NCBI GenBank assembly: GCA_043822165.1
Contig: JBDRCA010000012.1
Coordinates: forward strand, 1-41,081
Reading direction: 5' to 3'
Length of the DNA: 41,081 nucleotides
Source: Candidatus Altiarchaeota archaeon
Lineage (GTDB): Archaea; Altiarchaeota; Altiarchaeia; IMC4; SCGC-AAA252-I15
Below are positions 22,788-41,081 of the stretch, one piece after another (position 1 is the first letter of the stretch; each line of letters opens with the position of its first letter). Both the position numbers and the translations under genes were made by a program. The notes beneath the pieces are model-generated. The model made no database searches and had not been told where the DNA came from. It saw nothing but the letters and a program-made list of their open reading frames with translations.

Positions 22788-25700
22788 ATGGATTCGTTTA
22801 AAAACGCGATTTCACTTGCCGTGTTGCTTCTACTGCTGCAATCCTCTGCCGCGGAAGAGCATTTCGAGCGTAATGCTTCTTCTTTCTGCAGGACGCCTCT
22901 CTTCCACGAGGAGGCGGTGCGTTCCGCCAGTCTTTTGTCTTACCGGTCGCTTTCAAGCCAGGAGTTATCTCGCATCGGGAAGATTGGTTTGGATGGGATG
23001 ATTGTGGAGGAAAACGTGGGGGATGTTCGCAGTTTCTATACCATTGACGCGGACGGTGGCGTGTATTACTGGAAGGACCTTGATGCTGTCTTAAGGAACA
23101 AGACTGACAACGTGTACGTGTATGTTGAGCTTACCGAGCCCGGTGGCAACGAGGTATGGTATGACGGCGCCAATAATGGTTACATCACTCAGGTGGATGT
23201 TAATCTGATTACTCAGGTGTTCGATCAGGCATTGACTGAAAACGACATCTATGGCATAGACCGGGCGGTGTTCGGCGGGGAGAGGCCTTACGGAGTAGAC
23301 AATGATTCTCACGTTACTCTTCTTTTGCTTGACATCGACGGCGACGAAGGCGACAATTACTCTGGCGGGGGATACACTGCGGGCTACTTTTATCTCATAA
23401 ACGAGTACGCCAACAACACGCCGGTTATGAGTTGTCCCTCCTTCGGGGACTGCCTTTACAGTAATCAGAGAAAGATGATTTTCATAGACACTTATCCGAC
23501 GATTGACTGGCGAACTGCGACGGTTCCATATGAGCCTGACCGCAACCACGGAAACGACGGATACGAGGGAGTCGACAAGTCCTACGGCATCATAGCCCAC
23601 GAGTTCGAGCACATGATTCACTGGTACCACGACGCAGACGAGTCGGTGTGGGTGGATGAGGGCTGCGCGGACTACGCGTATTACGTCAACGGGTTCGGCC
23701 ACCCCCAGGAGCACGTCAACGGATTCCAGAACTCGCCAGACACGCAGCTCACGGCCTGGTCCGGGACCATTGAAGACTACGGAGCATCATATCTTTGGAC
23801 GCTTTACTTGGCCGAGCATTACGGCGGAAACGCGACTATTACGGCGTTAGTAAACAATGCCGGGAACAATGTTTCCGGCGTGGACGCAACGCTTTCATCC
23901 AGGGGTTACTCCACATCTTTTGCGGCAGTCTTCCCGAAGTGGGTTGTCGCAAACTACGCAGACGACACGAATTTTGGCTCCGGGGAATACGGGTACAATG
24001 CAATCGACACGGTCATGAACCTTTCCGCGTCCAAGACATCCTACCCTGCGTCAGGAACAGGCTCGGTTAAGAATTACGCCGGAGAATACATAAAGTTTTC
24101 CAATGGAAACGGGTCGTCGCTTAACGTATCATTCAACGGGCAAGACGGCAAATCATTTAATGCATACGTCGTCGAGAAGACGAATTCGGGAGTCTCGGCA
24201 GTATCAGAGATAACCCTCGACTCCGGCAAAGCCGGTTCAACTCTTGCGACAGCATTCGGCGTAAACGGCAAAAACTCAACCCTCGTAATAGCGGGAGGAT
24301 CAAGCGCCGGCACATACTCATACGCGGCAGACTACGCTCCGGAAGTGGCGGTTCCGACGCCGTGGCTTCTCGTCGAGATGACTTACCCGACGGCAAGCCT
24401 GAATGTATCTGAGGAAGGCTCCTTTAACGTATCAGCTACCGTGACCTGCCGTGGCGCATACTGCGGAGACGTAAACGCAATCCTTGACCCCCAGGAGTAT
24501 TCTAATCCAAATCTTGGAACCTTAACGACGACCTCTGGTTTAGCTGCGACTACATCCGTACCCGGAACCACGAGTCTTCCGTCCACGACAAGCGTTGCCG
24601 GCGCGGGCACGATGACTGTTTCCGGGACTACCACTGTCCCTTCGACGACGACTCTCCCTGAAGAGGCGACGACTACTACCACGACTACGACTCAGTCCGC
24701 GACGACTACGACCACGCAGGCGGGGACGACCACTACTTCCTCCACGACAACCACGGTCTTAAAGTCTGGGGCAGTCCCCGAGGGTTCCGGCTCCCCGTTC
24801 TACACGCTTGACGCCAACCCAGCATATCCCGCGAATTTCCCATGCCTTGCAAGCATGACAGAAAACGATTCATGCAACGTAACCTGGGAAGTACAAGTCA
24901 ACGGCTCCGGCGGCCCATACATATTCTATGTTACAGCCAACAGCACGGAAGGCGCGCAAAACAACTCCAATACAGCAAACGTCACGATTCTACCGCCGAC
25001 ACCCGGTGCATTAACCGCTGAAATCACAGAACCCAACGCATCCATCCAGACACTCAAACACGCGCAATTCAACTTCACCGTAAGAGTAAACTGCACAGGC
25101 GGAGACTGCGGCGTCGTTACCGCAACCCTTGACCCAGAAAGCTCCGGCTCACCCTTCTACACCCCTGACGCGAACCCGCGACACGGAAACGCTCTCCCAT
25201 GTCTTGCGAACATGACCGGGAACTCAACGTGCAACGTAACATGGAGACTGAACGCGACAGGCACGGCAGGCTCAACGCACGTATTCTACGCAACCGTAAA
25301 CTCGACGCGCACGCAAAACCAGTCCTCGACGATAAACGTGACAATACTTGCTGCACCCTCTTCAACTGAAAACTTCACGGTTGACGCTAACGCTAGCCAG
25401 CCGGTACAGGTGAACTCGTCGGCGGCCAACGCCTCAATTACCTTATCCGTAAGCCAGAACGTATCAAATGAAACCCTCACCATTAACTCATACGATGAAA
25501 ACCCGGAGTTCACAGTCTTCAGTGAACCATCACTCGGAACATTCTACAGAATCGAGGCATCAAATGCTCTCGCAGGAAACCTGACCTACGCACTACTGAC
25601 GCTTCACTACTCTGAGGCTTGGGTCAACCAATCCAACCTGAACGAATCAACCCTTGCCATATACTGGCACAACGAAACCGGCTCCCTCTGGGAAAAAATT

Positions 25701-25874
25701 TCATCAGACATGGACTGGGTCCACGAGACCGGATTAAACGAGACTGGAGACTACGCTTGGGCTAATCTCACGCATTTCTCGACCTACGTCATAGGAGGCG
25801 AAAGCCTCTCAGTATCCCACACGGGAGAATTATACCTAGGATGGAATCTCATATCCCTCCCAGTTAGCATTTAA
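22788..25874 (+). CDS. Secreted, heavily sequon-decorated zinc metalloprotease (HEXXH...E gluzincin type) with Thr-rich linker and repeated beta-sandwich modules
   Basis: 1028-aa ORF. Signal peptide MDSFKNAISLAVLLLLLQSSAAEE. HEFEH at 23598-23612 with a downstream WVDEGCADY (third ligand Glu at 23658-23660). Thr-rich tract at 24522-24755. Two copies of the module C.GG.CG.V.A.LDP..SGSPFYT.DANP...C.....N..CNVTW. About 40 N-X-S/T sequons (hand count). Ends LGWNLISLPVSI. Confidence 0.75.
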   Translation: MDSFKNAISLAVLLLLLQSSAAEEHFERNASSFCRTPLFHEEAVRSASLLSYRSLSSQELSRIGKIGLDGMIVEENVGDVRSFYTIDADGGVYYWKDLDAVLRNKTDNVYVYVELTEPGGNEVWYDGANNGYITQVDVNLITQVFDQALTENDIYGIDRAVFGGERPYGVDNDSHVTLLLLDIDGDEGDNYSGGGYTAGYFYLINEYANNTPVMSCPSFGDCLYSNQRKMIFIDTYPTIDWRTATVPYEPDRNHGNDGYEGVDKSYGIIAHEFEHMIHWYHDADESVWVDEGCADYAYYVNGFGHPQEHVNGFQNSPDTQLTAWSGTIEDYGASYLWTLYLAEHYGGNATITALVNNAGNNVSGVDATLSSRGYSTSFAAVFPKWVVANYADDTNFGSGEYGYNAIDTVMNLSASKTSYPASGTGSVKNYAGEYIKFSNGNGSSLNVSFNGQDGKSFNAYVVEKTNSGVSAVSEITLDSGKAGSTLATAFGVNGKNSTLVIAGGSSAGTYSYAADYAPEVAVPTPWLLVEMTYPTASLNVSEEGSFNVSATVTCRGAYCGDVNAILDPQEYSNPNLGTLTTTSGLAATTSVPGTTSLPSTTSVAGAGTMTVSGTTTVPSTTTLPEEATTTTTTTTQSATTTTTQAGTTTTSSTTTTVLKSGAVPEGSGSPFYTLDANPAYPANFPCLASMTENDSCNVTWEVQVNGSGGPYIFYVTANSTEGAQNNSNTANVTILPPTPGALTAEITEPNASIQTLKHAQFNFTVRVNCTGGDCGVVTATLDPESSGSPFYTPDANPRHGNALPCLANMTGNSTCNVTWRLNATGTAGSTHVFYATVNSTRTQNQSSTINVTILAAPSSTENFTVDANASQPVQVNSSAANASITLSVSQNVSNETLTINSYDENPEFTVFSEPSLGTFYRIEASNALAGNLTYALLTLHYSEAWVNQSNLNESTLAIYWHNETGSLWEKISSDMDWVHETGLNETGDYAWANLTHFSTYVIGGESLSVSHTGELYLGWNLISLPVSI
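24522..24755 (+). repeat. Thr-rich (ACN-codon) low-complexity tract, mucin-like linker
   Basis: Encodes LTTTSGLAATTSVPGTTSLPSTTSVAGAGTMTVSGTTTVPSTTTLPEEATTTTTTTTQSATTTTTQAGTTTTSSTTTTV. Confidence 0.85.
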
Positions 25875-25897
25875 AATCCTCTTCTCAATTCTTTTAG

Positions 25898-28800
25898 ATG
25901 AAAGAAAAAACACGGTTCGCCGCCGCCCTAACACTACTACTCATACTACCCGCTATCTCCTGCGCCGCTCCCGCTCGGCCCGGATACGTTAATCTTACCC
26001 AACCAGACGGCTCCGTATTCACGGCAAGGCTTCGCGGAGACGAGTACGCCGCCTGGTACGAGACAAGTCAAGGATACAGCATAGTCCAGAACCAAAACAA
26101 CTGGTGGGTGATGGCAAGGGAACGAGACGGAAGACTCGTAGAAACATTTACTCGCGCAGACGCGAAAGCATCCCATCTCCTGTCAGACATACCCTTGCAC
26201 GCGCGCCCTGCAGGCTTAAGCCCGCCACCCGGCGGCCCATACAAAGGCCCGTCTCCGTCAGGCATAAGAGAATACGTGAACGGAACAGTCAAAGTGCTGG
26301 TGCTCCTCATAAACTTCACGGACAACCCGCGGGTTAACGCTTCCCGTTACGTCGGCCCATACTACAACGATCTTTTGTTCAACCACTCAAACAACATGAG
26401 CATGGCAACATACTACTGGGAGAACTCGTATGGAATATTCAATGTCACGGGCGGGGTCGGCGGACCAGACAAATGGTACACGAGCGCGCAGAGCATGGCC
26501 TACTACGGCGCCGACTGCTCGGGAGCGGGCTCCGACGACTGTTACGGTAGCACGACCTATGACATGATATGCGAGGCCGCGTCTCTTGCGAATCCTGACG
26601 TCGACTACTCGCAGTACGACTCTGACAGCGACGGATACGTCGACTACTTGATTACAGTGCACGCAGGCTGCGCCCAGGAGGATTCAGTGGACTGTGCGAT
26701 GGCAAACACCATCTGGTCTGTACGCTGGAGCATCGGCGCCCCCTGGGATCTTTGCGGCACCACATTCGACGGCAAAAAGATTAGAAGCGGCACAATACTG
26801 GCTGAGAGCTCTCCGATGGGGACTTTCGGGCACGAGGCAGGCCACGACTTCGGAGACCTCCCTGACCTGTACGACATTGATTATTCGAGCGAGGGCATCG
26901 GGAACTGGGGTATGATGAGCGGCGGAAGCTGGAATGGCCCTGGTAGTCAGGCGGGGGAGTTTCCTGCGCACTTTTGCGCGTGGAGCAAGTACTATATGGG
27001 CTGGGTTAATCCTACTCTCATATCTTCTCCGCTATTCGACGAGGAGTTGGAGGCTGTTGAGACTTACCCTGATTTCTACCAGATAATGATTCCGTTATCA
27101 GACACGCCTTCTCACCCGTCATCCGGCGGCCAGAAAGAATACTTTCTCGTCGAGAACAGGCAGCAGGTGGGCTTTGACGCCTACATTCCCGGCTCCGGAG
27201 TCCTCATCTGGCACGTCGACGATAATCAGGTGCGGATAGAGGACAACAGCTTCAACAAATACGACAGCGATCGGGGCGTGGACCTTGAGGAGGCAGACCA
27301 GGCAACCCAGGCAAATAACGGACTGGACGGAAGCTCATATTACGGCACTGGAGACCGCGGCGTTGCTGCGGATGCTTGGAAGGCAAACGACGCAGGGTTC
27401 ACGGATTCTACGACTCCTAACTCGAAGTCCAAGGCGGGAGCGGCGACATACATAAACATAACGAACATATCAGCATCTGGGCTCGTTATGACAGCGGACT
27501 TCCTCGGAAACGGCACGACAATACACGGTACTGTTCTTCTCTCAAGCGGAAACGTTTCTCCGCAGTCAGGGTTCACTGACGAGACGTTCAACTACACTGT
27601 CTCATATCGGAGCGGTAATGATTCTGTTCCGTCTTACGTAAACGTCAGCATTGACGGTTCATCGTATGCCATGAATGAGTCTGATCCGTCGGACGCAAGA
27701 TTCATTGACGGCAAGGATTATTACTACCAGACGTATCTGGGTGTTGGTGTGCACAATTTCAGTTTCACGGCTTCTGACGGAGTCAGCACTAATTCCACGG
27801 AAGTATATGATAGTCCGAATGTTACCGTCCGCCCGGGTTACGTTACAGCATCCCTCATCTACCCTAATGCTTCCGTGAACTTCACCCGAAATGACATATC
27901 AAACGTTACTGCCCAGGTCACATGCCTCGGCGGGGACTGCGGGAACGTTACTGCAACCATAAATTCGAGCTCTGGCATCATACCTGAGGATTCCGGCTCC
28001 CCGTTCTACACGGTTGATGCTAATCCCCGCTATCCCGCCAACCTGTCGTGTCTTGTGAACTTGACTGAAAACTCATCGTGCAACGTCACGTGGAACATCA
28101 ATTCGACTGGGGGGCACGACACCGTCCATGACCTGCAAGTGTTCTTTGAGACGGCATTCTTCTCGAACACGACGGAGCAGGTAAGCGTTAGGATATATTC
28201 TCTGACGCCTTTCATCTCCAATCCACATCCATCCAACAACACGTTGTTCGGCCCCTACACGGCATCATTTTACCTTAACGTAACAACTCATGTGACGTCA
28301 GTGTGCCGGCTCTCAAACACGAGCGGGATACCATACGACAACATGACTTCGTCTTTCAACCAGACGAATTCGACGTCGCATTCAACGACGATAACCGGTC
28401 TTTCGAACAATCAGACGCTTAACCTTTACCTTAAGTGCCGCAGCACGCAGGGTTACGCAAACTCGGTCGACTATCCCCTTGAATACAGGGTTGCTGCCCC
28501 CGTTGTTGTCTTGAACGAGGTGAACGCGTACTCTGACTGGATTGAGTTGTTCAACAGGGGCGAGACCAGTGTTAATCTTTCGTCGTGGATTATCGAGCAC
28601 GTGTGGGGCGCAAACTCCGTTAACGTCACGTTAAACGAGACCATAACCACGTATATTGTCGCCTCAATAGCATTAAACGACATTGTAGGTCAAGTCCGGC
28701 TCTTTGACCGGGACGGCAACCTCGTAGACAACGTATCATACGTCAACCTCACAGACAACGTATCCTACGGCCGGCAAAGAGACGGGGAGACCCCATGGGT

Positions 28801-30262
28801 TCTGCTGGACGTTCCCTCCCCGGGATACACGAACGGGGAATACTACAGCCTCGACTGGTCCATGTTCAAGCACAACCCATCTCGCACGGCAGTAACCCCT
28901 GAAAACATGTCCTGGCGGCTGATACAGAAATGGAACCTCTCAATCGGCGACAAAGTCCGCTCATCCCCCGCAATCGTTGAAGGAGTCGTCTACTCAGCAT
29001 CCTGGAACGGGAGCATCTACGCCCTAAACTATTCGAACGGCAGCGTAATCTGGAATACTTCAGTTGGCTCATCAGTATCCTCTTCTCCTTCAGTGTCAGA
29101 GGGTCTTTTATATGTGGCCCGCTTCGGCGTGTCGACTGGAATACTATACTGTATGAATGCCTCCACTGGAGCCCACGTATGGAACATATCCTTTGCAGGA
29201 GAGATAGAGTCCTCACCGCTCGTCCAGTCAGAGATACTATACATCGGAGTAAACGACGGAAGACTATACGCGATAAACGCATCCACTGGAGCCCACATAT
29301 GGAATTACTCTGTGTCGTCTCCAGTCCGCTCGTCTCCCGCATTCAAGAACGGGGTGATTTATTTCGGAGCCAACAACATGAGGCTTTACGCACTTGACGC
29401 GTTAACGGGTTCCGAGTCATTCAACTACACGACATCCGGTATAGTCTATTCCACGCCTGCGGTTTCCGGGGAAACAGTAGTATTCGGTTCATACGACAAC
29501 AGGGTCTACGCTTTAAACACGTCATCTGGCGCTCAAATCTGGAATGCGTCGACTTCCGAGGGAGTATGGTCCTCGCCTGCGATATCCGATGACGTAGTAT
29601 ACATCGGCTCAAACGACAAGAAACTCTATGCCCTCAACTTATCCTCTGGCGCCCACATATGGAATGCAACGACCGGCGACGATATAGTATCCTCCCCCGC
29701 CGTCTCAGGCCAGTTCGTTTTCGCCTCCTCAAAAGACGAGATACTGCGGGCCTACAACAAGTCATCGGGAGCTCAGCTTTGGAGCGCTCACCTTGCCGAT
29801 AAGATTCTGTCTTCGCCCGCAGTCTCTGTTGGGATGGTTTTCGTGGGGGCTGAAGACGGGAGAATCTACGCGTTCGGCTTGTTTAATGACACAGACGCCC
29901 CGAACATAACTCTTCTCTCTCCGGAAAACAACTCGCTTGACTTGGACGGGGAACTCTCCTTCCTATACAGTGTAGTCGATGAAGGCTCAAACATCACGAA
30001 CTGCTCTCTCTACTTGGACGGCTTGTTAAACGACACGTCCTCTAACATAACAGAGGATACGAACCAGTCATTCAGTGCTTCGGTTCCTTTAAACGGCACA
30101 CACAACTGGAGCGTCTCGTGCACGGACACGTGGGATGATCCCAACACGGGTGTTAGCGACACGTGGTTTTTCAACGTTTCAATCCAGCTGACATTCAGCT
30201 TCTGGGAAGACATAATCCTTGGGTGGAACCTTATATCACTCCCCCTAAATGTAACAGGATAA
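25898..30262 (+). CDS. Secreted M6-family (immune inhibitor A-like) metalloprotease fused to a CARDB-like module, lamin-tail domain (LTD) and 8-blade PQQ-like beta-propeller
   Basis: 1454-aa ORF. Signal peptide MKEKTRFAAALTLLLILPAISCAAP. M6 features KVLVLLINFTDNP and HEAGHDFGDLPDLYD (26831-26875). LTD is VVLNEVNAYSDWIELFNRGETSVNLSSWII...VRLFDRDGNLVDNVSY (about 28495-28835). Eight SSPA..G.VY.GS.D..LYALN.S.G..W repeats lie at about 28950-29880. Ends LGWNLISLPLNVTG. Confidence 0.85.
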   Translation: MKEKTRFAAALTLLLILPAISCAAPARPGYVNLTQPDGSVFTARLRGDEYAAWYETSQGYSIVQNQNNWWVMARERDGRLVETFTRADAKASHLLSDIPLHARPAGLSPPPGGPYKGPSPSGIREYVNGTVKVLVLLINFTDNPRVNASRYVGPYYNDLLFNHSNNMSMATYYWENSYGIFNVTGGVGGPDKWYTSAQSMAYYGADCSGAGSDDCYGSTTYDMICEAASLANPDVDYSQYDSDSDGYVDYLITVHAGCAQEDSVDCAMANTIWSVRWSIGAPWDLCGTTFDGKKIRSGTILAESSPMGTFGHEAGHDFGDLPDLYDIDYSSEGIGNWGMMSGGSWNGPGSQAGEFPAHFCAWSKYYMGWVNPTLISSPLFDEELEAVETYPDFYQIMIPLSDTPSHPSSGGQKEYFLVENRQQVGFDAYIPGSGVLIWHVDDNQVRIEDNSFNKYDSDRGVDLEEADQATQANNGLDGSSYYGTGDRGVAADAWKANDAGFTDSTTPNSKSKAGAATYINITNISASGLVMTADFLGNGTTIHGTVLLSSGNVSPQSGFTDETFNYTVSYRSGNDSVPSYVNVSIDGSSYAMNESDPSDARFIDGKDYYYQTYLGVGVHNFSFTASDGVSTNSTEVYDSPNVTVRPGYVTASLIYPNASVNFTRNDISNVTAQVTCLGGDCGNVTATINSSSGIIPEDSGSPFYTVDANPRYPANLSCLVNLTENSSCNVTWNINSTGGHDTVHDLQVFFETAFFSNTTEQVSVRIYSLTPFISNPHPSNNTLFGPYTASFYLNVTTHVTSVCRLSNTSGIPYDNMTSSFNQTNSTSHSTTITGLSNNQTLNLYLKCRSTQGYANSVDYPLEYRVAAPVVVLNEVNAYSDWIELFNRGETSVNLSSWIIEHVWGANSVNVTLNETITTYIVASIALNDIVGQVRLFDRDGNLVDNVSYVNLTDNVSYGRQRDGETPWVLLDVPSPGYTNGEYYSLDWSMFKHNPSRTAVTPENMSWRLIQKWNLSIGDKVRSSPAIVEGVVYSASWNGSIYALNYSNGSVIWNTSVGSSVSSSPSVSEGLLYVARFGVSTGILYCMNASTGAHVWNISFAGEIESSPLVQSEILYIGVNDGRLYAINASTGAHIWNYSVSSPVRSSPAFKNGVIYFGANNMRLYALDALTGSESFNYTTSGIVYSTPAVSGETVVFGSYDNRVYALNTSSGAQIWNASTSEGVWSSPAISDDVVYIGSNDKKLYALNLSSGAHIWNATTGDDIVSSPAVSGQFVFASSKDEILRAYNKSSGAQLWSAHLADKILSSPAVSVGMVFVGAEDGRIYAFGLFNDTDAPNITLLSPENNSLDLDGELSFLYSVVDEGSNITNCSLYLDGLLNDTSSNITEDTNQSFSASVPLNGTHNWSVSCTDTWDDPNTGVSDTWFFNVSIQLTFSFWEDIILGWNLISLPLNVTG
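28950..29880 (+). repeat. Eight tandem roughly 40-codon PQQ-like beta-propeller blades
   Basis: Recurring SSPA(V/I)..G.VY.GS.D..LYALN.S(S/T)GA.IWN. Nucleotide-level echoes include CCACTGGAGCCCACGTATGGAA (about 29164) and CCACTGGAGCCCACATATGGAA (about 29284), 120 nt apart. Confidence 0.8.
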
Positions 30263-31193: not shown

Positions 31194-31456
31194 GCCCTCT
31201 TCTTTTTAGACTGGTCGATAATCCTCGCCGGCTCAAGAGGCAAAACAGCATCGCTTTGGACGAATCTCGGTCCACCCGAGTAAACCTCCCTTTCCGGAGG
31301 CAAATCATTTTTAGACTTCAGCCTCGCAATCTCATCGTCCGTCAGATGCTGGTGCAAGTGAGCGCGCCTCACCACTTCGTCATGCCTAAGATACGGCTTC
31401 TGCGACGGAGACGAGCCGCTTCTGCTCTTGTTCTGCAACTTGCGCTGCTTTGACAT
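31190..31456 (-). CDS. Small basic hypothetical protein (88 aa)
   Basis: Preferred start is ATG 31456 (MSKQRKLQNKSRSGSS...), with an AT-rich TTTATC box about 25-30 nt upstream. Translationally coupled to the Cys-rich membrane protein gene. Confidence 0.4.
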   Translation of the reverse strand: MSKQRKLQNKSRSGSSPSQKPYLRHDEVVRRAHLHQHLTDDEIARLKSKNDLPPEREVYSGGPRFVQSDAVLPLEPARIIDQSKKKRA

Positions 31457-32798: not shown

Positions 32799-33755
32799 AT
32801 GAAGCTTTTGATACAGTTTTCAGGCGAACACCCTACTCTCCCGTATGCGGAGTTTGAGGGTGTTTTACGCGGTGAAGGCTTAAAACACAAGCTCTTGGAG
32901 GAATACTCTGCCGAGAGGCTGGTGGTAGCCAAAGTAAAGGCTGAACACTCATCATTCCTAACTCGTCTTGCTCTCGCAAGAAGAGTGTGCAGTTACGTCG
33001 GATCGTCCGCAGACCTTGACGTTTTGGCGGATAACCTCTATCCGCTTCTTAACGGCGGCTCATTCAAGGTTTCGTGCAAGAGTATGCGTGTCTCAGAAAG
33101 GCTCGGAGGCATCCTGCACGGACGGGGGCTTCGCGTTGACGTGCACGCTCCGGACGCGGTCGTCGAGGTTTTCCTGGCAGACCGAAAATTCCACGCGGGA
33201 ATAAGGATTCCCTTAAACCAGGACTTCGAGAAGCGCAAACCCCAGCATCGCCCCTTCTTCCACCCAACGAGCATGCACCCCAAATTCGCCCGCGCACTCG
33301 TGAACCTGGCGGAAGTAAAAGCGGGAGAAACGCTTCTGGACCCTTTCTGTGGGACGGGTGGCATACTCATTGAGGCAGGCCTTATGGGCGTGAACGTCGC
33401 CGGCCTTGACATAGACGAGAAAATGGTCGAAGGCTGCAAAAAAAACTTGGACAAATACAAAATAAAAGGAGACATCCAAAAAGGAGACGCGCGCTCCTCA
33501 GTCTTTCAAGCAGACGCCATAGCAACGGACCCACCGTACGGGCGCTCATCATTCGTCTCAGGAAAAGACCCCATAAGCCTCTATGTTGAGTTCATTGAAA
33601 ACGCGGCAAAGCATATTTCTCCCGGACGCTGCATGGTCCTGATGGCTCCCCAACACTACGACCTAGACTTCCCCGGCTTAGACGAGAAAGCCCACATAGA
33701 CCTTCGAATGCACAAAAGCCTCACCCGCAGGATATGGGTTCTCACAAAAAAATAG
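32799..33755 (+). CDS. trm11: THUMP-domain tRNA (guanine10-N2)-methyltransferase (Trm11 / Trm-G10)
   Basis: 318-aa ORF. N-terminal THUMP-like region. SAM motif I LDPFCGTGGILIEAGLMG. Catalytic DPPYGRSS. Confidence 0.8.
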   Translation: MKLLIQFSGEHPTLPYAEFEGVLRGEGLKHKLLEEYSAERLVVAKVKAEHSSFLTRLALARRVCSYVGSSADLDVLADNLYPLLNGGSFKVSCKSMRVSERLGGILHGRGLRVDVHAPDAVVEVFLADRKFHAGIRIPLNQDFEKRKPQHRPFFHPTSMHPKFARALVNLAEVKAGETLLDPFCGTGGILIEAGLMGVNVAGLDIDEKMVEGCKKNLDKYKIKGDIQKGDARSSVFQADAIATDPPYGRSSFVSGKDPISLYVEFIENAAKHISPGRCMVLMAPQHYDLDFPGLDEKAHIDLRMHKSLTRRIWVLTKK

Positions 33756-33788: not shown

Positions 33789-34769
33789 ATGGTCTGGGGT
33801 CCGCCGAAACTAAGAGAGCTACGTCTTTTCGAGGGCGAGAAAATCTCAATGGTGTTAACGCCGCACCCACTAGCATTCTACGGCATGCACATGCTCTGGA
33901 TTTACGTGATAGTGTTGTCTGCAATATTCTTCATAGTAAGCGATTTCATAGTCGACTACATGGGTCCAGGAGACCAAGGCTTCGCATTAAGCCTCCTGGG
34001 AAAATCAGATTCTCCCCTGGTTGCCAAGGCCCCCATAATAAACGTTTTCGCCTCCGTTCTGGATAGCATGCTAAGCGGCACAATATCCTTTTCCGTGCGC
34101 TACGGCATCGTATTCATCTGGTTTGCTCTTCTCTTCACGCCGTCTGTTGGATTGTCTGTTATGCGGGTCTCCTGGAAGTGGATGGCTTACGTGCTCTTTA
34201 CGGGTTTAGTCAGCATCGGGGTTCCCCTGGTATCTGGTTTGGATGAGAAGATGGTTTACGTGTTTGCCTCCTTGTTCGGTTTGCTGGGGATGATCGCAGT
34301 CGACCTTTACAGGCGCGGACACCACTATATCGTGACGAACTACCGGCTTATAACCGACGTGCGCTTCATCTACAATATCCGGGACGACATAAGCTACGAT
34401 AAGATTAACAATCTAGTCATGAATCAGTCCCTCTTCGGGAGATTGTTCGACTTTGGGACGCTTATGCCGTTGACTGCTTCCGGGCTCGGCATGGGTAGCG
34501 ATTTCGCGGCTGTGACAGTAGGAGCCGGGAAGCCGCTTTCTTCCGGCGTCCTTGTGGGCGGTGCCTTGACTGGGGGACGCAGCGTCAACTTTCCAAGAGA
34601 TATGTCTCAGTTTTCTCTTGTTGGGGTGCGCCACCCGAGGCAGGTTGTGGACCTGGTTTCGGAGTACGTGCACCTTGACAATGAATCTACCTACCTCAAA
34701 GACATATCCTCTGATATGAGAGAAATGCTCGGTGAAGTAAAAAAGAAGAGTAAACGTAAAAAAAGTTAG
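33789..34769 (+). CDS. Membrane protein with bacterial-PH (bPH_2 / YdbT-like) domain
   Basis: 326-aa ORF with several TM helices. HHYIVTNYRLITDVRFIYNIRDDISYDKINNLVMNQSLFGRLFDFGTL matches the bPH domain pattern. Lys-rich tail. Confidence 0.6.
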   Translation: MVWGPPKLRELRLFEGEKISMVLTPHPLAFYGMHMLWIYVIVLSAIFFIVSDFIVDYMGPGDQGFALSLLGKSDSPLVAKAPIINVFASVLDSMLSGTISFSVRYGIVFIWFALLFTPSVGLSVMRVSWKWMAYVLFTGLVSIGVPLVSGLDEKMVYVFASLFGLLGMIAVDLYRRGHHYIVTNYRLITDVRFIYNIRDDISYDKINNLVMNQSLFGRLFDFGTLMPLTASGLGMGSDFAAVTVGAGKPLSSGVLVGGALTGGRSVNFPRDMSQFSLVGVRHPRQVVDLVSEYVHLDNESTYLKDISSDMREMLGEVKKKSKRKKS

Positions 34770-35257
34770 TTTTCTTTTTTCAGTATTTTGGGCTGTATTC
34801 TCTGGCTGTTTTTCAGTATTTTGGGGTGTATCACTTGACTGAATTTTATGATTTCATGTAGGGGGTAGATTGTTACGGGATATTTACCAACCTTTCCTAG
34901 GAATTCTTCTAAGTTCTCGTGGCTTTCAGAGTTGGGTACAACAACTTGGACTATTATTTTGCCGTCTAAGGTCCTGAATATTTTTTGCGCTTCATCAAGT
35001 TTCTCTATGCTTTTTGCTAGTTTCTTGGATTCGCTTGGTGGCGTGTGGATGATTATGTAACTCATATCGAGTCCGTTTTCATTGGGGTCAAGTATTGCAG
35101 AGAATTTTTTTATTACTCCTCTGTCGATTAGTTTGTTGACGCGCGAGCAAATGGTTGTGTGGGGTATGTCCAGTTCCCCCCCAAGTTTACGCAGGCTAAT
35201 TCTAGCATCGTCTTGCATGTGTTCCATAATCTGGATGTCTAGTTCGTCAATTTTCAT
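34766..35257 (-). CDS. Lrp/AsnC-family transcriptional regulator
   Basis: 163-aa ORF. HTH MKIDELDIQIMEHMQDDARISLRKLGGELDIPHTTICSRVNKLIDRGVIKKF followed by a RAM-like alpha/beta domain. Noticeably lower GC than its neighbours. A TTTTTAAATA box lies on its strand at about 35286-35296. Confidence 0.85.
   Translation of the reverse strand: MKIDELDIQIMEHMQDDARISLRKLGGELDIPHTTICSRVNKLIDRGVIKKFSAILDPNENGLDMSYIIIHTPPSESKKLAKSIEKLDEAQKIFRTLDGKIIVQVVVPNSESHENLEEFLGKVGKYPVTIYPLHEIIKFSQVIHPKILKNSQRIQPKILKKEN
34777..34831. repeat. 33-bp tandem duplication at the 3' end of the Lrp gene
   Basis: TTTTCAGTATTTTGGGCTGTAT (34777-34798) and TTTTCAGTATTTTGGGGTGTAT (34810-34831) differ at 1 of 22 positions with a 33-nt period. 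They encode the duplicated tail HPKILKNSQR / IQPKILKKEN. Confidence 0.8.
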
Positions 35258-35300: not shown

Positions 35301-35322
35301 TTATAATATTATAATATTATAA
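35301..35322. promoter_or_regulatory. Perfect 22-bp AT palindrome TTATAATATTATAATATTATAA (two overlapping TATAATATTATA 12-mers), box 1
   Basis: Self-complementary, checked by hand. Lies just upstream of the Lrp-gene TATA-like box. Built from the octamer TTATAATA. Confidence 0.6.
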
Positions 35323-35401
35323 CTTCAATGTCACTCTAAGGCTGATACTATTAACCAATATTGGGCTGCCCACACAGTATTCTATTAGTGATTAAGACCC
35401 A

Positions 35402-35416: not shown

Positions 35417-35426
35417 ATTGTACAAT

Positions 35427-35438
35427 TATAATATTATA
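35427..35438. promoter_or_regulatory. Palindromic 12-mer TATAATATTATA, box 2
   Basis: Exact copy of the 12-mer found in boxes 1 and 3. Confidence 0.55.
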
Positions 35439-35493
35439 TTTTTGCATGTAATTCATCAATACTTATGATAAAATATTCTTTATTGTATATCGT

Positions 35494-35515
35494 ATAATTA
35501 TAATATTATAATATT
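35494..35515. promoter_or_regulatory. ATAATTATAATATTATAATATT, box 3 (contains TATAATATTATA at 35499-35510)
   Basis: Third cluster of the TTATAATA-type octamer repeat, 257 nt upstream of the giant ORF start. Confidence 0.55.
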
Positions 35516-35554
35516 GAACATAGTCCATTTTTAAAGGCTTATTGTCATACTATA

Positions 35555-35600: not shown

Positions 35601-35771
35601 TCTAACAAAAATGAAATATGGGTGGTTGGAAGTATCTCTAAATCAGAATTATTCTCCAGTTTCAGATATTCTGCTCTACTCACCACAAAAATCTTTCTCA
35701 AGAAAAAACCTAACCGAAACGTTCTCTACTCAAAAAAAATATTCGAATAAAATGGAGGTTGCATAAAAAAA

Positions 35772-38700
35772 ATGGAACAGAAAAAAACAGGACATATAAG
35801 AAATTGGTTTGGAAGCCATTTAACGGCACTGAACTCCCAGAAAGGAACTTTATTCAAAAGCCCGACAACACTACTAACGCTCACAATACTTATGTTACTC
35901 GTAGCCTCCATTAGCGTAAGCCATGTAATCGCTTTAATCCAGCCCACCGTCTCGACCGACAAGGCGGACTACGCGCCAGGCGAAACAGTCCTCATAAGCG
36001 GGGAAGGTTTCGCATACGATGCGCCCATGATGATGTCGATTGAAAGACCAGACGGTGAAACAGAGTCATGCGACGTAACCTCCTGTAATGCAAGATTCCT
36101 TGACGGTCCGTTAACCTCCGATGCAACCGGCTCGTTCTCAGACTACCCCTACCTCCTAAACGGAATCGAAGGCGAATACACAATAACCGCCTCAGACGGC
36201 ATAAACGATGCAACAGCAACATTCACTGACATAATAACCCCCTGCCCTACCGCGTGTACAAATGCAGGGTATGCAATAAGTTCTTGCGTACAAAGTCCAG
36301 GAGTCTGCACCACCGGTGGCGGGGTTACAGTAGTTGCAGGGAATGGTGGATGTAATCAAGCCACAGGAGGGGGATCAGGAACATGCTGCTGCGGTGCTGC
36401 AGTATCCCACGACCCGCACGCCGAGTGCGTCAACAACCAGTGCGTTGAGGTGGCGGGCTCTGGAATAGACCAGTGTTATGATACCCTAGACTGTGGAGGA
36501 ACAACAACAAGTTCAACCACAACCTCGACTACAACACTCCTAGAAACCACAACCTCGACCACAACAACTCTATACGCGAGACCCTGCGATAGCCCCACCG
36601 ACTTGTGCAGTTGGGTAACCGACGGCAACCCCGACAACGGCCTCCCGCTCGGCTCTCCCGACAACTCCGGCTGCGGATTATCATACAACACATTCTGGGC
36701 TCTCGACACCCAAGCCACCGCAACCTGCACGTTCGACGGAACTGGCCTCGGCGGCGCAGACCTCTACATCTCAATTGACAACGACGTCGTAAGCTGCACA
36801 CTCAACACCGTGAGCATATTCTCCATTTCCCATGAGGGTTGTGCGGCAGTCGACCCGCGCACCATCGGAGGAGGCGTGGGGCAGGGATACCAAGTCCCGC
36901 TCACTGGCCTCAACTCCGGCACAAACACTATCGTATGTACTGTAAACGACCGCGGCACGATGAGTCACTTCGACGCCTGCGTGATTGGAACAGAATGCAC
37001 TACTGCTGCTGACTGCGACGACAGCGACGACTGCACAACCGAATCATGCGTTGAAGGAAGCTGCACACACGGAAATGCAGTGCAAGGAACCGAATGCGGT
37101 GAGGCACGTAATTGCCCTGAAGACGATTGTAACGGATTCTTTGCTGAATTCTATCCAGATGACGGCCACGACACCTGCGACGGCCAAGGAAATTGCGTGC
37201 AATACTCCTGCGCAATGGAGGATTCATACTGCACCGACAACGATGACGCGGACGGTGTAAACACTCTAACGTGCGGTGCAGAATGCGACCAAAACAGCGA
37301 CTGCCAAGCAAAAATAGAAAGCGACACATGCTACTATGATGGGTCATGCGACCTACAAACCGATTGCGCATGCGACTATTCAAACGAACCCTGCCCCGAA
37401 GCAGGTACAATAATCGGTGACGACTGCTACTATGGAACCAGGAACTGTGTAAATTCAGAGAGTCCAGGCGGCTGTACTTTAAATGTTGATCCAATGGGCT
37501 GCTACGACACATGCGACCCAGTTTTAGGGCCAATCGACACCATAGGTCCGGTAACATCAAACCTGGATGTCGACCCCAACCCAAACAACGGTTTGTTCGA
37601 CATCACGGCGACGGCAACAGACTCCTGCACAAACATTGATAAAGCAGAATACTTTGCTGGCGACGCCGTAATCCCGTGCGGGCCAGAGGGTACAGGAATC
37701 TCGATGGATGCCTCAGACGGCAACTTCGACGCACTCATCGAAGACGTGGAAAAATACTTCTCAAGCGCAATAACAGACGGCTCAAACGTCGTTTGGGTGC
37801 GCTCGCATGATGCCGCAGGAAACTGGGGTAACTGCATACCCTTCTATTTTGAGACAGACCGGATTCCGCCGGAGCGCGTGTTCGACTATTGTATCGACGG
37901 CAACTGCCCGCCAGACGAGTATCTGATGTGCGGAAACGACGGCACATTAACTGTGACAGTTTGTGACAGCGAATCCAACCTGCAGGGCGGCGAATACTTC
38001 ATCGACATGAATATCCCTCCCCAGAATATACCCGCACCGTGGAGTGGTTTCTGGCTAAACATAACCAACAACTACATCGACAAAATCGGCTGGCACTGCT
38101 CTGATCTTACTGGTCCGTTGCATCTCGGAAACCTTTCTGAGGGGACGCACTACATAAACCAGATTCGCGGCAAAGACACCGTCGAAAACTGGGGTAAAAT
38201 CTACAACCAAAACCTCGGCATGTCGTTCATCAAGGACACGACCGAACCCGCAACTGACAAACAGCTTAACCCGCAGGACAGTGCGAGCGTCGTATGCGAC
38301 ATCACGGAAGCAAACGGCGAGACGATAACCAACGGCTGCTACTACGTCAAACAGTGGACGACGATCGTCTTAAACGCTTCTGACCCAGACCCCCAGCAGA
38401 CTGGTGAGTTCGCAGGAAACGTCATCATCAAATACATAGTGTACTGGAAGAATGATGACTGCGATAGCGCTAGTGGTTGGACAATCGACCAGCAGGGTCA
38501 AAGCAATGTAGATGAGTCAGTTACTATCACCTTGACCGAAGACAGCTGCCACCTCGTCGAGTACTGGGCTGAGGATCTCTGCGACAACGAAGAGGAGCAC
38601 CACTTCGAGCTTGACATCGTCGATACGGCGGCCCCTGAAATAACCAAAGAGGTTGTCGGCGACCAGGTGGACGGCAACGGAAACCCAATCCACAAGTACA

Positions 38701-41081
38701 TCAACGACGAAACACAAGTCATCCTTACATGCGAGGATGTGATGCCTCACCCGGTTGACGACGTAACCCTCTACTGGGAGCACTACTACGCTGCAGACGC
38801 TGACTGTGTTGTATCCGATTGGGGCACGCCTTTGGAAACCGGTTCAGAGAATAGTCAGAGTGATCCTGTCACTAAGACATTCACCGGGCTCGAGGATAGC
38901 TGCCACAAATTCGTGTACTGGTGTGAAGACGCCTTAGGCAACACTTTCGGCCCGATTGAGGAAATAGATGCGGTAGACAACACACCGCCCGAACTCAACA
39001 AGGACATAGGAACGCCGATATACGTTGACGGCGAGGAAGTCTACATCTCGCTTGCGACCCCGATAACACTTACGTGCGTGGACAGAGGAAACCACCCTGT
39101 CGACGACGTCACAATCTACTGGAGGTGGATCGTCAACGACGTGCCGCAGAGTGAGGAATCAATCAACGCCGAGAGTGTTGTCCTACACGCCAGCGAAGAC
39201 TGCTATCACACACTCGAGTACTGGTGCGAGGACTCGCTCGGAAACCTAGTCGAGAAAATCGAATACGATATAGTTGACGCAAAAGCCCCGATTTCATCTA
39301 GCGAGGTCGTCGGCCCGCAGTACGAGAATGATAGCAAGTTGTACATAGACGGCGTTACTAATGTCGCATTGTCGTGTGAAGACCAGATGCCACACCCAAG
39401 CGGCGTCAAGAAAATCGAGTACCGGTACTTCATAAACGACACAATCCTGGTTCAGGATTGGACTACCTATGCGAATCCGTTCAGTTTCCCTGAGGAGTCG
39501 CATCACACGCTAGAGTATCGTTGCATAGATAACGTTGACAACGTGGAGATCGCGAACGTCAGAGAATACTACGTCGATCATACACCACCGACGACAACGA
39601 AAATATATGGCACACCATTCTACATAAACGGTAGCTTAGAGTGGGCTAGCTCCCTCACGGAGATTACCTTAACGGCGGACGACGGCACAAGCGAGCATGC
39701 GTCTGGTGTACAGTACACCATGTATCGCGTGACTCTCGTCGACGACAGCAACTGTTACGCAAGCTGTGTTGCGGAAGGAAGCGGTGGGTTCAACACCTAT
39801 TCCGTGCCGTTCACGATCGGCGAGGATTCATGTCACCTGATTGAGTTCTACAGTGTTGACAACGTCGAGAAAACCGAGCAGACGAAGAAGCAGTGCGTAT
39901 TCATCGACAACAAGCCGCCTGAATCCTCAAGCGAGGTTTTAGGCCCACAGTATGATGACGGACAAAAGCTGTACATCGACGGCGTAACCGAGATTCAGTT
40001 GTCGTGCGAAGACCAATTGCCTCACCCCAGTGGAGTACAGTATATTGCATACAAGTACTCTGTTGACGGTAGTCCGATTCAAGACTGGACGACATACACT
40101 GGCCCGTTCAGCTTCCCTGAGGAGTCACACCATGTACTAGAGTACCGGTGCGTCGACAACGTCGACAACATGGAGACTGCGAACGTCAGAGAATACTACG
40201 TTGACCACACAAAGCCTGTGACGACAAAAACCTACGGCACTCCATACGTGACCGACGGAATCTCTGAGTGGATTACCTCACAGACACCAGTAACTCTTAC
40301 GGCCGACGACGGCAGTGAGAACCATGACAGCGGCGTAGCGACAACATACTACCGTGTGACTCTCGTCGCCGACAGCAACTGTTACACAAGCTGTGTGGAT
40401 GCAGGAACCGGTGGGTTCAACACATATTCCGTGCCGTTCACAATCGGCGAGGACTCATGTCACCTAATCGAGTTCTACAGCGTCGACCGCGTGAATAAGA
40501 CCGAGCAGACTAAGAGACAGTGCACGTTCGTCGACAACACCAAGCCCGCCACATCAAAGACTGTGAGCGAGCCTAAGGTTTCTGGCACCGGCGGAATAGA
40601 CTACTACATCACAGCGGACACTGTGATTGAGTTGTCCTGCGCCGACCAGATGCCGCACCCGGTAGATGACGTTACACTATATTGGGCGGTATACTACAAC
40701 ACAGAATGCATTGACTCGCAGTCTGAGGCTTGGAGCCTTATTGACAGCGGAAAGACCGACGGCGTAAAGACTATAACTGGCCTTTCGGACAGCTGCCACA
40801 AAATCTCGTACTTCTGCGTTGACGCCCTCGGAAACACCGAAGTCGAGCATGTCGAGATTGACGCGGTAGACAACACGCCGCCGGCATCAGTAAAGACAGT
40901 CGGCGACCCGAAGGTCGACAAAGACGACCAGTACGACTACTACATAACACAGCAGACTAACATAACAATTGATTGCAGTGACCCTGCTCCGCATCCGGTT
41001 GATGATGTTACAATCCACTGGGTTATTTCCGGCCCGGGCGGAGGCACATACAGTGATAACAGCGCTTCGGTGACGTTCACT
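35772..41081 (+). CDS. Giant Cys-rich cell-surface protein with N-terminal signal anchor, Thr linker, Cys/Asp-rich region and at least 9 Ig-like (OmpL47/Big-like) modules; 5' part only (1770 codons, no stop before the window end)
   Basis: Absent from the ORF track because it never terminates. Hand translation from ATG 35772 stays open to 41081. An in-frame TAA lies at 35748 and GGAGGT at 35754-35759, 12 nt upstream of the ATG. The span is 5310 nt, exactly 1770 codons. N-terminus: MEQKKTGHIRNWFGSHLTALNSQKGTLFKSPTTLLTLTILMLLVASISVSHVIALI. Only short shadow ORFs exist on the other strand. Confidence 0.88.
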   Translation, partial: MEQKKTGHIRNWFGSHLTALNSQKGTLFKSPTTLLTLTILMLLVASISVSHVIALIQPTVSTDKADYAPGETVLISGEGFAYDAPMMMSIERPDGETESCDVTSCNARFLDGPLTSDATGSFSDYPYLLNGIEGEYTITASDGINDATATFTDIITPCPTACTNAGYAISSCVQSPGVCTTGGGVTVVAGNGGCNQATGGGSGTCCCGAAVSHDPHAECVNNQCVEVAGSGIDQCYDTLDCGGTTTSSTTTSTTTLLETTTSTTTTLYARPCDSPTDLCSWVTDGNPDNGLPLGSPDNSGCGLSYNTFWALDTQATATCTFDGTGLGGADLYISIDNDVVSCTLNTVSIFSISHEGCAAVDPRTIGGGVGQGYQVPLTGLNSGTNTIVCTVNDRGTMSHFDACVIGTECTTAADCDDSDDCTTESCVEGSCTHGNAVQGTECGEARNCPEDDCNGFFAEFYPDDGHDTCDGQGNCVQYSCAMEDSYCTDNDDADGVNTLTCGAECDQNSDCQAKIESDTCYYDGSCDLQTDCACDYSNEPCPEAGTIIGDDCYYGTRNCVNSESPGGCTLNVDPMGCYDTCDPVLGPIDTIGPVTSNLDVDPNPNNGLFDITATATDSCTNIDKAEYFAGDAVIPCGPEGTGISMDASDGNFDALIEDVEKYFSSAITDGSNVVWVRSHDAAGNWGNCIPFYFETDRIPPERVFDYCIDGNCPPDEYLMCGNDGTLTVTVCDSESNLQGGEYFIDMNIPPQNIPAPWSGFWLNITNNYIDKIGWHCSDLTGPLHLGNLSEGTHYINQIRGKDTVENWGKIYNQNLGMSFIKDTTEPATDKQLNPQDSASVVCDITEANGETITNGCYYVKQWTTIVLNASDPDPQQTGEFAGNVIIKYIVYWKNDDCDSASGWTIDQQGQSNVDESVTITLTEDSCHLVEYWAEDLCDNEEEHHFELDIVDTAAPEITKEVVGDQVDGNGNPIHKYINDETQVILTCEDVMPHPVDDVTLYWEHYYAADADCVVSDWGTPLETGSENSQSDPVTKTFTGLEDSCHKFVYWCEDALGNTFGPIEEIDAVDNTPPELNKDIGTPIYVDGEEVYISLATPITLTCVDRGNHPVDDVTIYWRWIVNDVPQSEESINAESVVLHASEDCYHTLEYWCEDSLGNLVEKIEYDIVDAKAPISSSEVVGPQYENDSKLYIDGVTNVALSCEDQMPHPSGVKKIEYRYFINDTILVQDWTTYANPFSFPEESHHTLEYRCIDNVDNVEIANVREYYVDHTPPTTTKIYGTPFYINGSLEWASSLTEITLTADDGTSEHASGVQYTMYRVTLVDDSNCYASCVAEGSGGFNTYSVPFTIGEDSCHLIEFYSVDNVEKTEQTKKQCVFIDNKPPESSSEVLGPQYDDGQKLYIDGVTEIQLSCEDQLPHPSGVQYIAYKYSVDGSPIQDWTTYTGPFSFPEESHHVLEYRCVDNVDNMETANVREYYVDHTKPVTTKTYGTPYVTDGISEWITSQTPVTLTADDGSENHDSGVATTYYRVTLVADSNCYTSCVDAGTGGFNTYSVPFTIGEDSCHLIEFYSVDRVNKTEQTKRQCTFVDNTKPATSKTVSEPKVSGTGGIDYYITADTVIELSCADQMPHPVDDVTLYWAVYYNTECIDSQSEAWSLIDSGKTDGVKTITGLSDSCHKISYFCVDALGNTEVEHVEIDAVDNTPPASVKTVGDPKVDKDDQYDYYITQQTNITIDCSDPAPHPVDDVTIHWVISGPGGGTYSDNSASVTFT
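39301..40560 (+). repeat. Tandem duplication of a 630-nt (210-codon) two-module unit inside the giant gene
   Basis: Copy 1 (39301-39930) and copy 2 (39931-40560) align colinearly. Examples: SEVVGPQYENDSKLYIDGVT.. versus SEVLGPQYDDGQKLYIDGVT.. and ..GGFNTYSVPFTIGEDSCHLIEFYSVD.. in both. Long identical nucleotide runs include GCGAACGTCAGAGAATACTACGT and TATTCCGTGCCGTTCAC. Confidence 0.85.

Follow-up and report, generated by a model that had tools for sequence, protein, structure and literature searches.

An 18-kb region of an Altiarchaeota contig as a probable mosaic of independent cell-surface and housekeeping genes

Overall organization of the region

We analysed contig JBDRCA010000012.1 of a Candidatus Altiarchaeota metagenome-assembled genome (MAG) over its whole length of 41,081 bp (hereafter the window), with emphasis on its last 18 kb (22788-41081). 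This region encodes two signal-peptide metalloproteases (P1 and P2), a Cys-rich anchored protein, an Lrp/AsnC regulator, and a giant Cys-rich protein. Altiarchaeota are uncultivated, double-membraned subsurface archaea, and to our knowledge little is known about their envelope biology besides the hami. The region is probably a mosaic of independent cell-surface and housekeeping genes and not one system, and the apparent locus would be a chance neighbourhood of envelope genes. The initial annotation, which was made from the sequence alone, had tentatively joined these genes into a single attachment-and-degradation apparatus. That proposal was not supported, as no conserved co-occurrence was found except for P1-P2 and unrelated genes are interleaved. 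The region comprises the following genes:

22788-25874, + strand: P1, M30-like protease, 1028 amino acids (aa)
25898-30262, + strand: P2, M6 protease, 1454 aa
30264-31193, - strand: Cys-rich anchored protein, 309 aa
31190-31501, - strand: small basic open reading frame (ORF), 88 aa from its ATG (31190-31456)
31511-31759, + strand: small basic ORF, 82 aa
31764-32759, - strand: MtnA, S-methyl-5-thioribose-1-phosphate isomerase, housekeeping (TIGR00512, 370 bits with cut-off 279; PF01008)
32799-33755, + strand: TIGR01177/UPF0020-type (Trm-like) RNA methyltransferase, housekeeping
33789-34769, + strand: multi-pass membrane protein with a bPH_2 domain (PF03703) and four hydrophobic segments
34766-35257, - strand: Lrp/AsnC regulator (PF13404, PF13412)
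35772-41081, + strand: giant Cys-rich gene, open to the contig end, at least 1770 aa

The coding sequences of the exported proteins sum to about 13.7 kb, which agrees with the roughly 13 kb estimated before, and the cell-surface or secreted nature of these products was likewise supported.

Gene order in related loci

The proposed components of the apparatus are spread over three or more transcription units in both orientations, and the genes for MtnA, the methyltransferase, and the bPH_2 protein stand between them. The locus of the nearest relative (L001, 73% nucleotide identity) is collinear for the histidine kinase, FtsZ, hyp224, Sec61beta, P1, P2, and the small ORFs, and it has no Cys-rich gene. 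No M6 partner, giant, Lrp, or Cys-rich gene was found near the M30-like genes of four distant Altiarchaeota loci. In one of them, from another Altiarchaeota MAG (L084), the neighbour has only an LTD module in common; in the Altiarchaeales IMC4 locus (L085), the gene stands alone; and the two nearest P1 paralogues (L209 and L210) lie among PheRS, ABC-transporter, and toxin-antitoxin genes.

Two homologues of the giant gene (L082 and L083), on unrelated contigs with G+C of 0.52 and 0.33, have a Fic gene a few kb upstream (2892-3755 and 6317-7219, respectively). Immediately upstream of each lies an 825-941-aa gene for a Cys-rich or C1-peptidase protein, with a Peptidase_C1 domain in L083. Nothing else of the window is present there, and neither Lrp nor a metalloprotease stands beside these homologues; the giant gene of the window, in turn, has neither a Fic gene nor an 825-941-aa-type gene upstream. 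Additionally, 80 loci around MtnA relatives (L002-L081) have MtnA alone in common with the region; L002, whose MtnA is 71% identical, was checked gene by gene and its neighbours are unrelated. Among the proposed components, conserved co-location was therefore observed for the P1-P2 pair only, in L001, and no co-occurrence was found for everything else. The synteny conservation across related MAGs that a single system had been expected to display is thus confined to this pair, and the other contexts differ.

Two exported metalloproteases of different families

P1 is 100% identical to the NCBI protein ABH834_00640 (Candidatus Altiarchaeota), which is left as hypothetical in databases. It consists of a signal peptide (aa 1-22) with a short hydrophobic core of the signal-peptide type (MDSFKNAISLAVLLLLLQSSAAEE), a catalytic domain (about aa 66-505), a T-rich linker, two beta modules (aa 617-709 and 715-847), and a C-terminal tag. 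Its zinc site is located as follows:

23598-23660, + strand: HEFEHMIHW...WVDEG (H271, E272, H275, E291)

The H, E, H, and E of this site are invariant in the 16-sequence alignment of the P1 family (A1), and the motif, HEFxHxIHW...W(V/L)(D/N)EG, is kept in 16 of the 16 homologues inspected. The family is defined by the N-terminal 45% of P1. A profile built from A1 matched the lugdulysin structures 7bb8 and 7bb9 in the PDB with E=1.7e-42 over about 295 positions; the HExxH and the catalytic Glu align, and the Tyr of IEDYGASY in P1 aligns with the residue mutated in 7bb9 (Y315F). P1 has no match in Pfam, PF10460 (Peptidase_M30) included, and only a weak MXAN_6640_HExxH match in NCBIfam, while one of the 16 family members matches PF10460 with E=0.017. 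Because P1 does not match PF10460, it was classed as M30-like, in a distant sister family. By its sequence, P1 is a secreted M30-like gluzincin of the lugdulysin/hyicolysin type with predicted activity. The protein thereby gains a family assignment. The label "immune inhibitor A" on some bacterial relatives goes back solely to an InhA-like MAM domain in those proteins, and the M30 profile match contradicts it.

The start codons of Sec61beta and P1 are divergent and 38 nucleotides (nt) apart (22750-22787), a distance that requires either promoters reaching into the adjacent genes or leaderless transcripts. In L001, the gene call for the P1 orthologue starts later and is without a signal peptide. 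Four Altiarchaeota paralogues of P1 (P0005, P0006, P0008, and P0009) end in dockerin-like repeats (..DVIDLINAWASG) and are not enriched in N-X-S/T sequons; one of the four has a cohesin domain (PF00963). These paralogues hint at a putative cellulosome-like docking of proteases in some Altiarchaeota.

P2 comprises an M6 domain (aa 130-440), a module shared with P1 (aa 629-763), an LTD (aa 867-949), a PQQ/BamB-like beta-propeller (about aa 1000-1340), a Big_7-like domain, and a C-terminal tag. The M6 domain passes both PF05547 (87.8 bits, cut-off 22) and TIGR03296 (182.8 bits, cut-off 110.8), and the propeller gives strong PQQ_2 and Beta-prop_ACSF4 matches; the LTD match is sub-threshold (28.7 bits, cut-off 34.3). 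The zinc motif, HEAGHDFGDLPD, was read against the M6 consensus, HExxHxxGxxD: HExxH and the Gly are present, and the Asp is shifted by one residue, with one extra before it. With its N-terminal hydrophobic segment, P2 is on these matches a secreted M6 (InhA-type) zinc protease with predicted activity. The two signal-peptide metalloproteases of the initial annotation were thus recovered, with HEFEH in P1 and the corresponding motif in P2.

P2 starts 23 nt past the P1 stop on the same strand, and in L001 the P2 orthologue (78% identical) directly follows the P1 orthologue; as a result, a two-gene P1-P2 operon is probable. One module of about 95-135 aa is common to P1 (617-709 and 715-847) and P2 (629-763), with 44-46% identity. 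A paralogous origin of the two proteins, as implied when they were described as paired, was rejected because the catalytic families differ and a single accessory module is in common. The operon would give two Sec-exported zinc endopeptidases from different MA-clan families (M30-like and M6), both presumably heavily N-glycosylated. The added modules (beta-sandwich, LTD, propeller) most likely serve in binding to a substrate or a surface. P1 and P2 would most likely be cell-surface or extracellular proteases that act in protein and peptide breakdown or in envelope remodelling.

A narrower role would be the maturation or turnover of the cell's own envelope glycoproteins, such as a surface layer or appendages, in place of a nutritional or partner-directed role. 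The position of P1 and P2 by Sec61beta and signal recognition particle (SRP) RNA, which is conserved in L001, is consistent with such a role, as are the propeller and LTD as protein-binding modules and the glycan cluster on the same contig. However, the adjacency to Sec61beta and SRP RNA is limited to two closely related contigs, other M30-like genes lie among unrelated housekeeping genes, and nothing points to a substrate. We therefore consider this role rather unlikely.

A C-terminal tag and the GWNLISLP...GYW module

Both proteases end in a short tag of 11-14 residues:

25839-25874, + strand: P1 tag, GWNLISLPVSI and stop codon
30221-30262, + strand: P2 tag, GWNLISLPLNVTG and stop codon

The same ending is found in both L001 orthologues and in the paralogue P0007 (GWNLISLPVAA), and it is degenerate in P0003 and P0004. 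Within the 2.28 Mb compared, tag endings are confined to these Altiarchaeota-type proteins and an LTD protein from a metagenome (L207). The domains that precede the tag in P1, P2, the L001 orthologues, and P0007 are unrelated, and the tag itself is identical.

A DNA-motif scan of metagenomes returned at least 120 contigs (L089-L208). Among the matches listed, 110 instances did not run off the contig, and in 81 of these a stop codon lies 150-179 codons past the motif, which indicates that GWNLISLP is as a rule the beginning of a C-terminal module some 155-170 aa long. The module is built of two tandem domains, GWNLISLP...GxGYWI followed by GWNLVGY..., and its carriers are long signal-peptide proteins with YDG/MBG, Big, BACON, CARDB, beta-helix, or invasin-type domains on contigs with G+C of 0.28-0.68. 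No Pfam or NCBIfam match was found for it at E<=1 apart from noise, and a literature search on "GWNLIS" returned no paper. A structure model from a shallow alignment reached a mean predicted local distance difference test score (pLDDT) of 58, with no Foldseek match at E<=0.001. Four members of the giant family (P0094, P0095, P0099, and P0101) end in the full module; the C-terminus of the giant protein of the window lies beyond the contig end.

The module is thus widespread and unnamed, and it may anchor or sort exoproteins. It would merit a domain definition; should it turn out to anchor or sort proteins, the surface proteomes of many uncultured archaea and bacteria would become easier to predict. 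The tag of P1 and P2 appears to be a reduced, one-strand form of it, and the pairing of the unnamed module with a one-strand form in Altiarchaeota is the most original finding of the region. The dockerin-like endings and the single cohesin of the P1 paralogues suggest a docking position at the C-terminus, and we infer that the C-terminus of the P1 family serves as an anchoring or docking position.

From these data, the tag may be imagined as a docking strand that binds full-module proteins, perhaps the giant protein, by beta-strand addition or complementation and yields a protease-decorated stalk, for which the tetrabrachion-STABLE protease complex of Staphylothermus offers a comparison (PMC4460559). 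An identical tag after unrelated domains argues for docking, as do the usual opening of a two-domain module by the motif (81/110 among the matches listed), the module at the end of four giant homologues, and the dockerin-like ends and cohesin of the paralogues. Against it stand the missing C-terminus of the window's giant protein, the low pLDDT of the module model (58) with no fold match, and the failure to find a partner with an incomplete module; moreover, a short strand could just complete the domain before it or serve in sorting. We hold docking by the tag to be unlikely. The fuller version, in which the tag would dock both glyco-proteases on module-bearing proteins such as the giant fibre, as a protease-armed stalk on the double-membraned cell and an apparatus held together by the tag instead of gene linkage, is in our judgement quite improbable.

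Sequon and cysteine composition

Sequon numbers were compared with shuffles that keep the amino-acid content of each protein. P1 has 41 N-X-S/T sequons against 17.7+-3.5 expected (z=6.6), and P2 has 70 against 21.6+-4.2 (z=11.5), whereas the giant protein has 8 against 16.6+-3.7 and the remaining proteins of the window have 0-4 each. The giant protein contains 84 Cys (4.75%) and the Cys-rich anchored protein 19 (6.15%). The opposition of sequon-dense proteases to a Cys-dense, sequon-poor giant and membrane protein, drawn in the initial annotation, therefore holds against composition-matched shuffles.

In the P2 propeller (28895-29917), two sequon positions recur in six to seven consecutive blades (..N-x-S-x-G....WN-x-S/T..), as in ALNYSNG..WNTS, MNASTG..WNIS, and INASTG..WNYS; this recurrence would imply a regular ring of glycans on the propeller. 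Sequon enrichment extends to the tag-bearing Altiarchaeota homologues (z=6-10) but not to the paralogues with dockerin-like ends. High Cys content is found throughout the giant family (3.6-6.7%), with sequons near or below expectation in most members. Since the contrast tracks the protein family, separate histories and folds account for it more readily than coordination would. The contrast between sequon-rich and Cys-rich proteins that was proposed earlier is thus genuine, as a property of each family and not as a designed division of labour.

The giant Cys-rich protein

The giant protein starts with a signal anchor (aa 27-50), followed by an Ig-like domain, a Cys-rich and T-rich linker, a signature beta-sandwich (aa 262-425), a Cys-rich region (aa 420-590), beta domains, and OmpL47-type modules (aa 950-1770). 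The most plausible start is the ATG at 35772, because a GGAGGT motif lies 12 nt before it and this start yields the signal anchor; the NCBI start at M41 cuts through the hydrophobic segment. At least eight OmpL47-type modules of 100-112 aa, each starting with VDxTxP, were counted. The domain model NF047446 (OmpL47-type domain) matches four stretches with 128.4 bits (cut-off 40), and the equivalog model NF047441 (Lepto_OmpL47) gives 113.5 bits, below its cut-off of 250.

The homologues range from 1080 to 3086 aa and derive from Aenigmatarchaeota, Nanoarchaeota, Altiarchaeota, and metagenomes; identity to the six nearest is 28-38%. Their Cys-rich stretch gives weak Disintegrin and Dicty_CTDC matches. 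No match to PDB sequences was obtained for the giant protein, either with the single sequence or with a six-sequence profile. A foreign origin of the gene was rejected: its G+C of 0.51-0.54 equals that of the rest of the contig, so there is no compositional sign of recent transfer.

The signature domain is located as follows:

36555-37046, + strand: giant signature domain (aa 262-425), predicted beta-sandwich

It has 46 invariant columns in an alignment of eight sequences (A5), and its model reached a pLDDT of 72 and a predicted template modelling score (pTM) of 0.72. The top Foldseek match was 6m8m, the PA14 sugar-binding domain of an RTX adhesin (E=4.8e-4, template modelling score TMq 0.33). 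Next in rank came CBM61, CBM6, and Flo/Epa PA14 domains, and template modelling (TM) scores were 0.33-0.45 overall. Pfam gave no PA14 match. The model thus gives a weak hint that the signature domain may be a carbohydrate-binding head. In DPANN-type archaea, including Aenigmarchaeota, hypothetical proteins of about 185-200 aa (P0268-P0305) consist of this domain alone, for which there is no Pfam model.

The giant protein would be N-terminally anchored and disulfide-stabilised, in a family common to Altiarchaeota and DPANN archaea. Its chain of Ig-like modules could hold the possibly sugar-binding beta-sandwich away from the cell as an adhesin-like fibre, and the architecture as a whole suggests an adhesin function.

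The Lrp/AsnC regulator and its candidate operator boxes

The N-terminal helix-turn-helix (HTH) of the Lrp/AsnC protein matches PF13404 with 37.7 bits (cut-off 27) and PF13412 with 38.2 bits. NCBIfam gave weak LysM, Lrp, and LrpA matches whose alignments reach residues 86-125. In Pfam, no match to the C-terminal RAM/AsnC_trans_reg domain (PF01037) was found at E<=0.01, and a divergent RAM domain is possible from the sequence.

The regulator gene is divergent from the giant gene across a 514-nt AT-rich spacer that contains a perfect 14-bp palindrome, TTATAATATTATAA, at three places:

35301-35322, Lrp-giant spacer: two overlapping copies
35426-35439, Lrp-giant spacer: one copy with one mismatch
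35498-35511, Lrp-giant spacer: one copy

All four matches in the window fall in the spacer, against 0.02 expected from a whole-window shuffle that does not allow for local AT richness, and the sequence is absent from the 210 other loci (about 2.2 Mb). The repeat families D1, I3, and I4 of the spacer include the palindrome sites. An RNA element in the spacer was rejected: Rfam gave nothing at E<=1, and the fold z-score was -0.41.

Ss-LrpB of Sulfolobus is one example of an Lrp/AsnC regulator whose own control region holds several palindromic boxes. The sites are candidate Lrp operator boxes, through which Lrp would act on its own gene, the giant gene, or both; local control by Lrp is a reasonable inference from the gene layout. 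Together with its three palindromic sites, Lrp would form a small, testable regulatory unit ahead of the adhesin-like giant gene.

The Cys-rich anchored protein and the small ORFs

The Cys-rich protein has an N-terminal hydrophobic anchor, a Cys-rich repeat of about 72 aa (aa 75-148), a CxxxxxxDCGGxCxxC motif, and a C-terminal domain. Its gene, on the same strand as that for MtnA, converges on P2. No Pfam or NCBIfam match was found, and a HMMER scan of 1.84 billion representatives returned 487 relatives. The repeat (C..DCG..GY.G..FC.G..V...Y..Y.C.NPGT....C) occurs in up to 22 tandem copies in proteins of 1000-2600 aa, such as P0118 and P0119, and full-length orthologues are P0121 (297 aa, 42% identity) and P0130.

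P0121 is the one orthologue whose genomic position was traced. On three metagenome contigs (L086-L088), its gene stands 2 nt behind that of an MtnA orthologue on the same strand (66.6% identity to the MtnA of the window), followed by a gene for an 86-aa membrane protein (8989-10894 in L086, likewise in L087 and L088); no protease or giant gene is nearby. In L001, about 970 nt of the window, with the Cys-rich gene, are replaced by 53 nt. Since the gene is absent from the nearest relative and stands beside MtnA in another lineage, it is best regarded as a variable, dispensable accessory gene. Its conserved neighbour, where any exists, is MtnA, and the linkage places a methionine-salvage gene beside the gene of a Cys-rich surface protein. 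The minus-strand group would thus run from MtnA through the small ORFs to the Cys-rich anchored protein as an accessory gene.

The small basic ORF (31190-31456) is 65.5% identical to its L001 orthologue, and its hydrophilic 88-aa product has no Pfam or NCBIfam match. For the 82-aa ORF (31511-31759), the plus frame has 55% identity to L001 with 86.7 bits, and an antisense 87-aa ORF gives 42.7 bits. The initial annotation had described a Cys-rich membrane protein with a small basic partner. The anchored Cys-rich protein was confirmed, whereas a dedicated partnership was rejected, as the small ORF is kept in L001, where the Cys-rich gene is absent.

Weighing one apparatus against independent genes

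Several points weigh against the view of the region as independent genes, or against the roles assigned to them above. Synteny was sampled in about ten related loci, mostly short contigs, and it captures adjacency and not genome-wide co-occurrence. The shared GWNLISLP leaves a physical link open between the proteases and full-module proteins. The PA14/CBM similarity of the signature domain is weak (TM 0.33-0.45, E about 1e-3). The link between Lrp and the giant gene consists of a divergent order and palindromes in one genome, and the AT-rich palindromes could be promoter elements instead. Additionally, no Lrp gene stands beside the homologues of the giant gene in L082 and L083, so the Lrp-giant pairing is not a family trait; of the Lrp switch by a giant adhesin in the initial annotation, the divergent Lrp and the adhesin-like build were found, and the pairing did not recur.

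Alternatively, the proteases, the Cys-rich protein, Lrp, and the giant protein could form one co-evolved apparatus for attachment to, and degradation of, a partner surface or polymer. The proteases, the Cys-rich protein, and the giant protein are envelope or exported products within 18 kb, Lrp faces the giant gene, and a preprint describes Altiarchaeota as hosts of Huberiarchaeum in a cell-to-cell association (bioRxiv 10.1101/486977). However, both strands are used, with MtnA, the methyltransferase, and the bPH protein between the components; L001 keeps P1-P2 only, without the Cys-rich gene; and no co-location was seen in L082-L088, L209, and L210. We consider such an apparatus very unlikely and retain a mosaic of independent genes as the probable explanation. 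Finally, it is highly improbable that P1 and P2 are mainly structural surface glycoproteins with inactive protease domains, since HExxH and the third ligands are intact and invariant across the family and P2 passes the active M6 domain model, despite the extreme sequon density, the large non-catalytic portions, and a weak P2 match to the NCBIfam "M6-like inactivated metalloprotease" (82.8 bits, cut-off 600).

Other genes of the contig

The following features lie outside the 18-kb region:

226-6316, - strand: glycan cluster with two family 4 glycosyltransferases (GT4), an AsnB-like amidotransferase, an epimerase, and a GT family 4 / MraY-WecA-like transferase
18100-20301, + strand: PAS-HATPase sensor kinase, next to FtsZ, an arrangement kept in L001
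21531-21809: SRP RNA (Rfam RF01857, archaeal, 145 bits)
22585-22749: Sec61beta (PF03911); FtsZ is also on the contig
On the contig: MCM, which fits the archaeal assignment, like SRP RNA, Sec61beta, and FtsZ

The glycan operon, and Sec61beta with SRP RNA immediately upstream of the region, were thereby found as first described. A Cas4/Csa1-like PD-(D/E)XK nuclease gene (7701-8486, - strand; PF12705, PF01930, PF06023) is also present; neither a CRISPR array nor a further cas gene came to notice on the contig.

The statement that nothing in the region resembles an S-layer, pilus, or archaellum proved accurate, with zero matches to S-layer, pilin, or archaellin families among the region proteins in Pfam and NCBIfam. 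The hamus protein of Altiarchaeum has been described with S_Layer_N, NosD, and FKBP_C domains (PMC4975002; see also PMC4460559). A relation to hami or an S-layer was rejected, as no region protein matched these three domains in Pfam.

Comparison with known systems

The proteins of the region add to types already described: the M6 and M30-like proteases, the Lrp-family regulator, the protein built of a known Cys-rich repeat, and the giant Ig-repeat surface protein. With multi-beta-barrel surface proteins of the OmpL47 type and Ig-repeat adhesins like the PA14-bearing RTX proteins (6m8m), the giant protein shares tandem OmpL47-type modules of about 100 aa, as a possible extender; its predicted beta-sandwich may weakly resemble PA14/CBM folds. 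Unlike OmpL47 of Leptospira, it falls below the equivalog cut-off, and its family is, as far as seen, confined to Altiarchaeota and DPANN-type archaea.

The Lrp protein of the window shares with Ss-LrpB of Sulfolobus the AsnC-type HTH and three spaced AT-rich palindromic sites upstream of the regulator, in a region common with a divergent gene. It differs from described Lrp systems in that Pfam detects no RAM domain, the palindrome differs from the described consensus, and binding is here only predicted.

Like the C-terminal domain of the type IX secretion system (T9SS CTD), dockerin-cohesin, and tetrabrachion-STABLE, the GWNLISLP...GYW module is a conserved element at the extreme C-terminus of unrelated large secreted proteins. 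Unlike those systems, it matches no Pfam or NCBIfam model and is not known to have a sorting machinery or receptor, and P1 and P2 keep its first strand only.

P1 shares with lugdulysin and hyicolysin (M30, 7bb8) the HExxH, the downstream Glu in WxxEG, and the aligned Tyr. Unlike lugdulysin, it misses the Pfam M30 model and adds a C-terminal extension of 520 aa that is presumably glycosylated; annotations of its sister family say nothing more specific than "MXAN_6640 putative metalloprotease", or give the wrong name, "immune inhibitor A". P2 shares with InhA of Bacillus (M6) the catalytic domain, the HExxH and Gly of the zinc motif, secretion, and beta domains after the catalytic domain. Unlike InhA, P2 is archaeal and has about 1000 extra residues (LTD, an eight-blade-type PQQ-like propeller, and Ig-like domains), together with 70 sequons, the GWNLISLP C-terminal tag, and an extra residue before the motif Asp.

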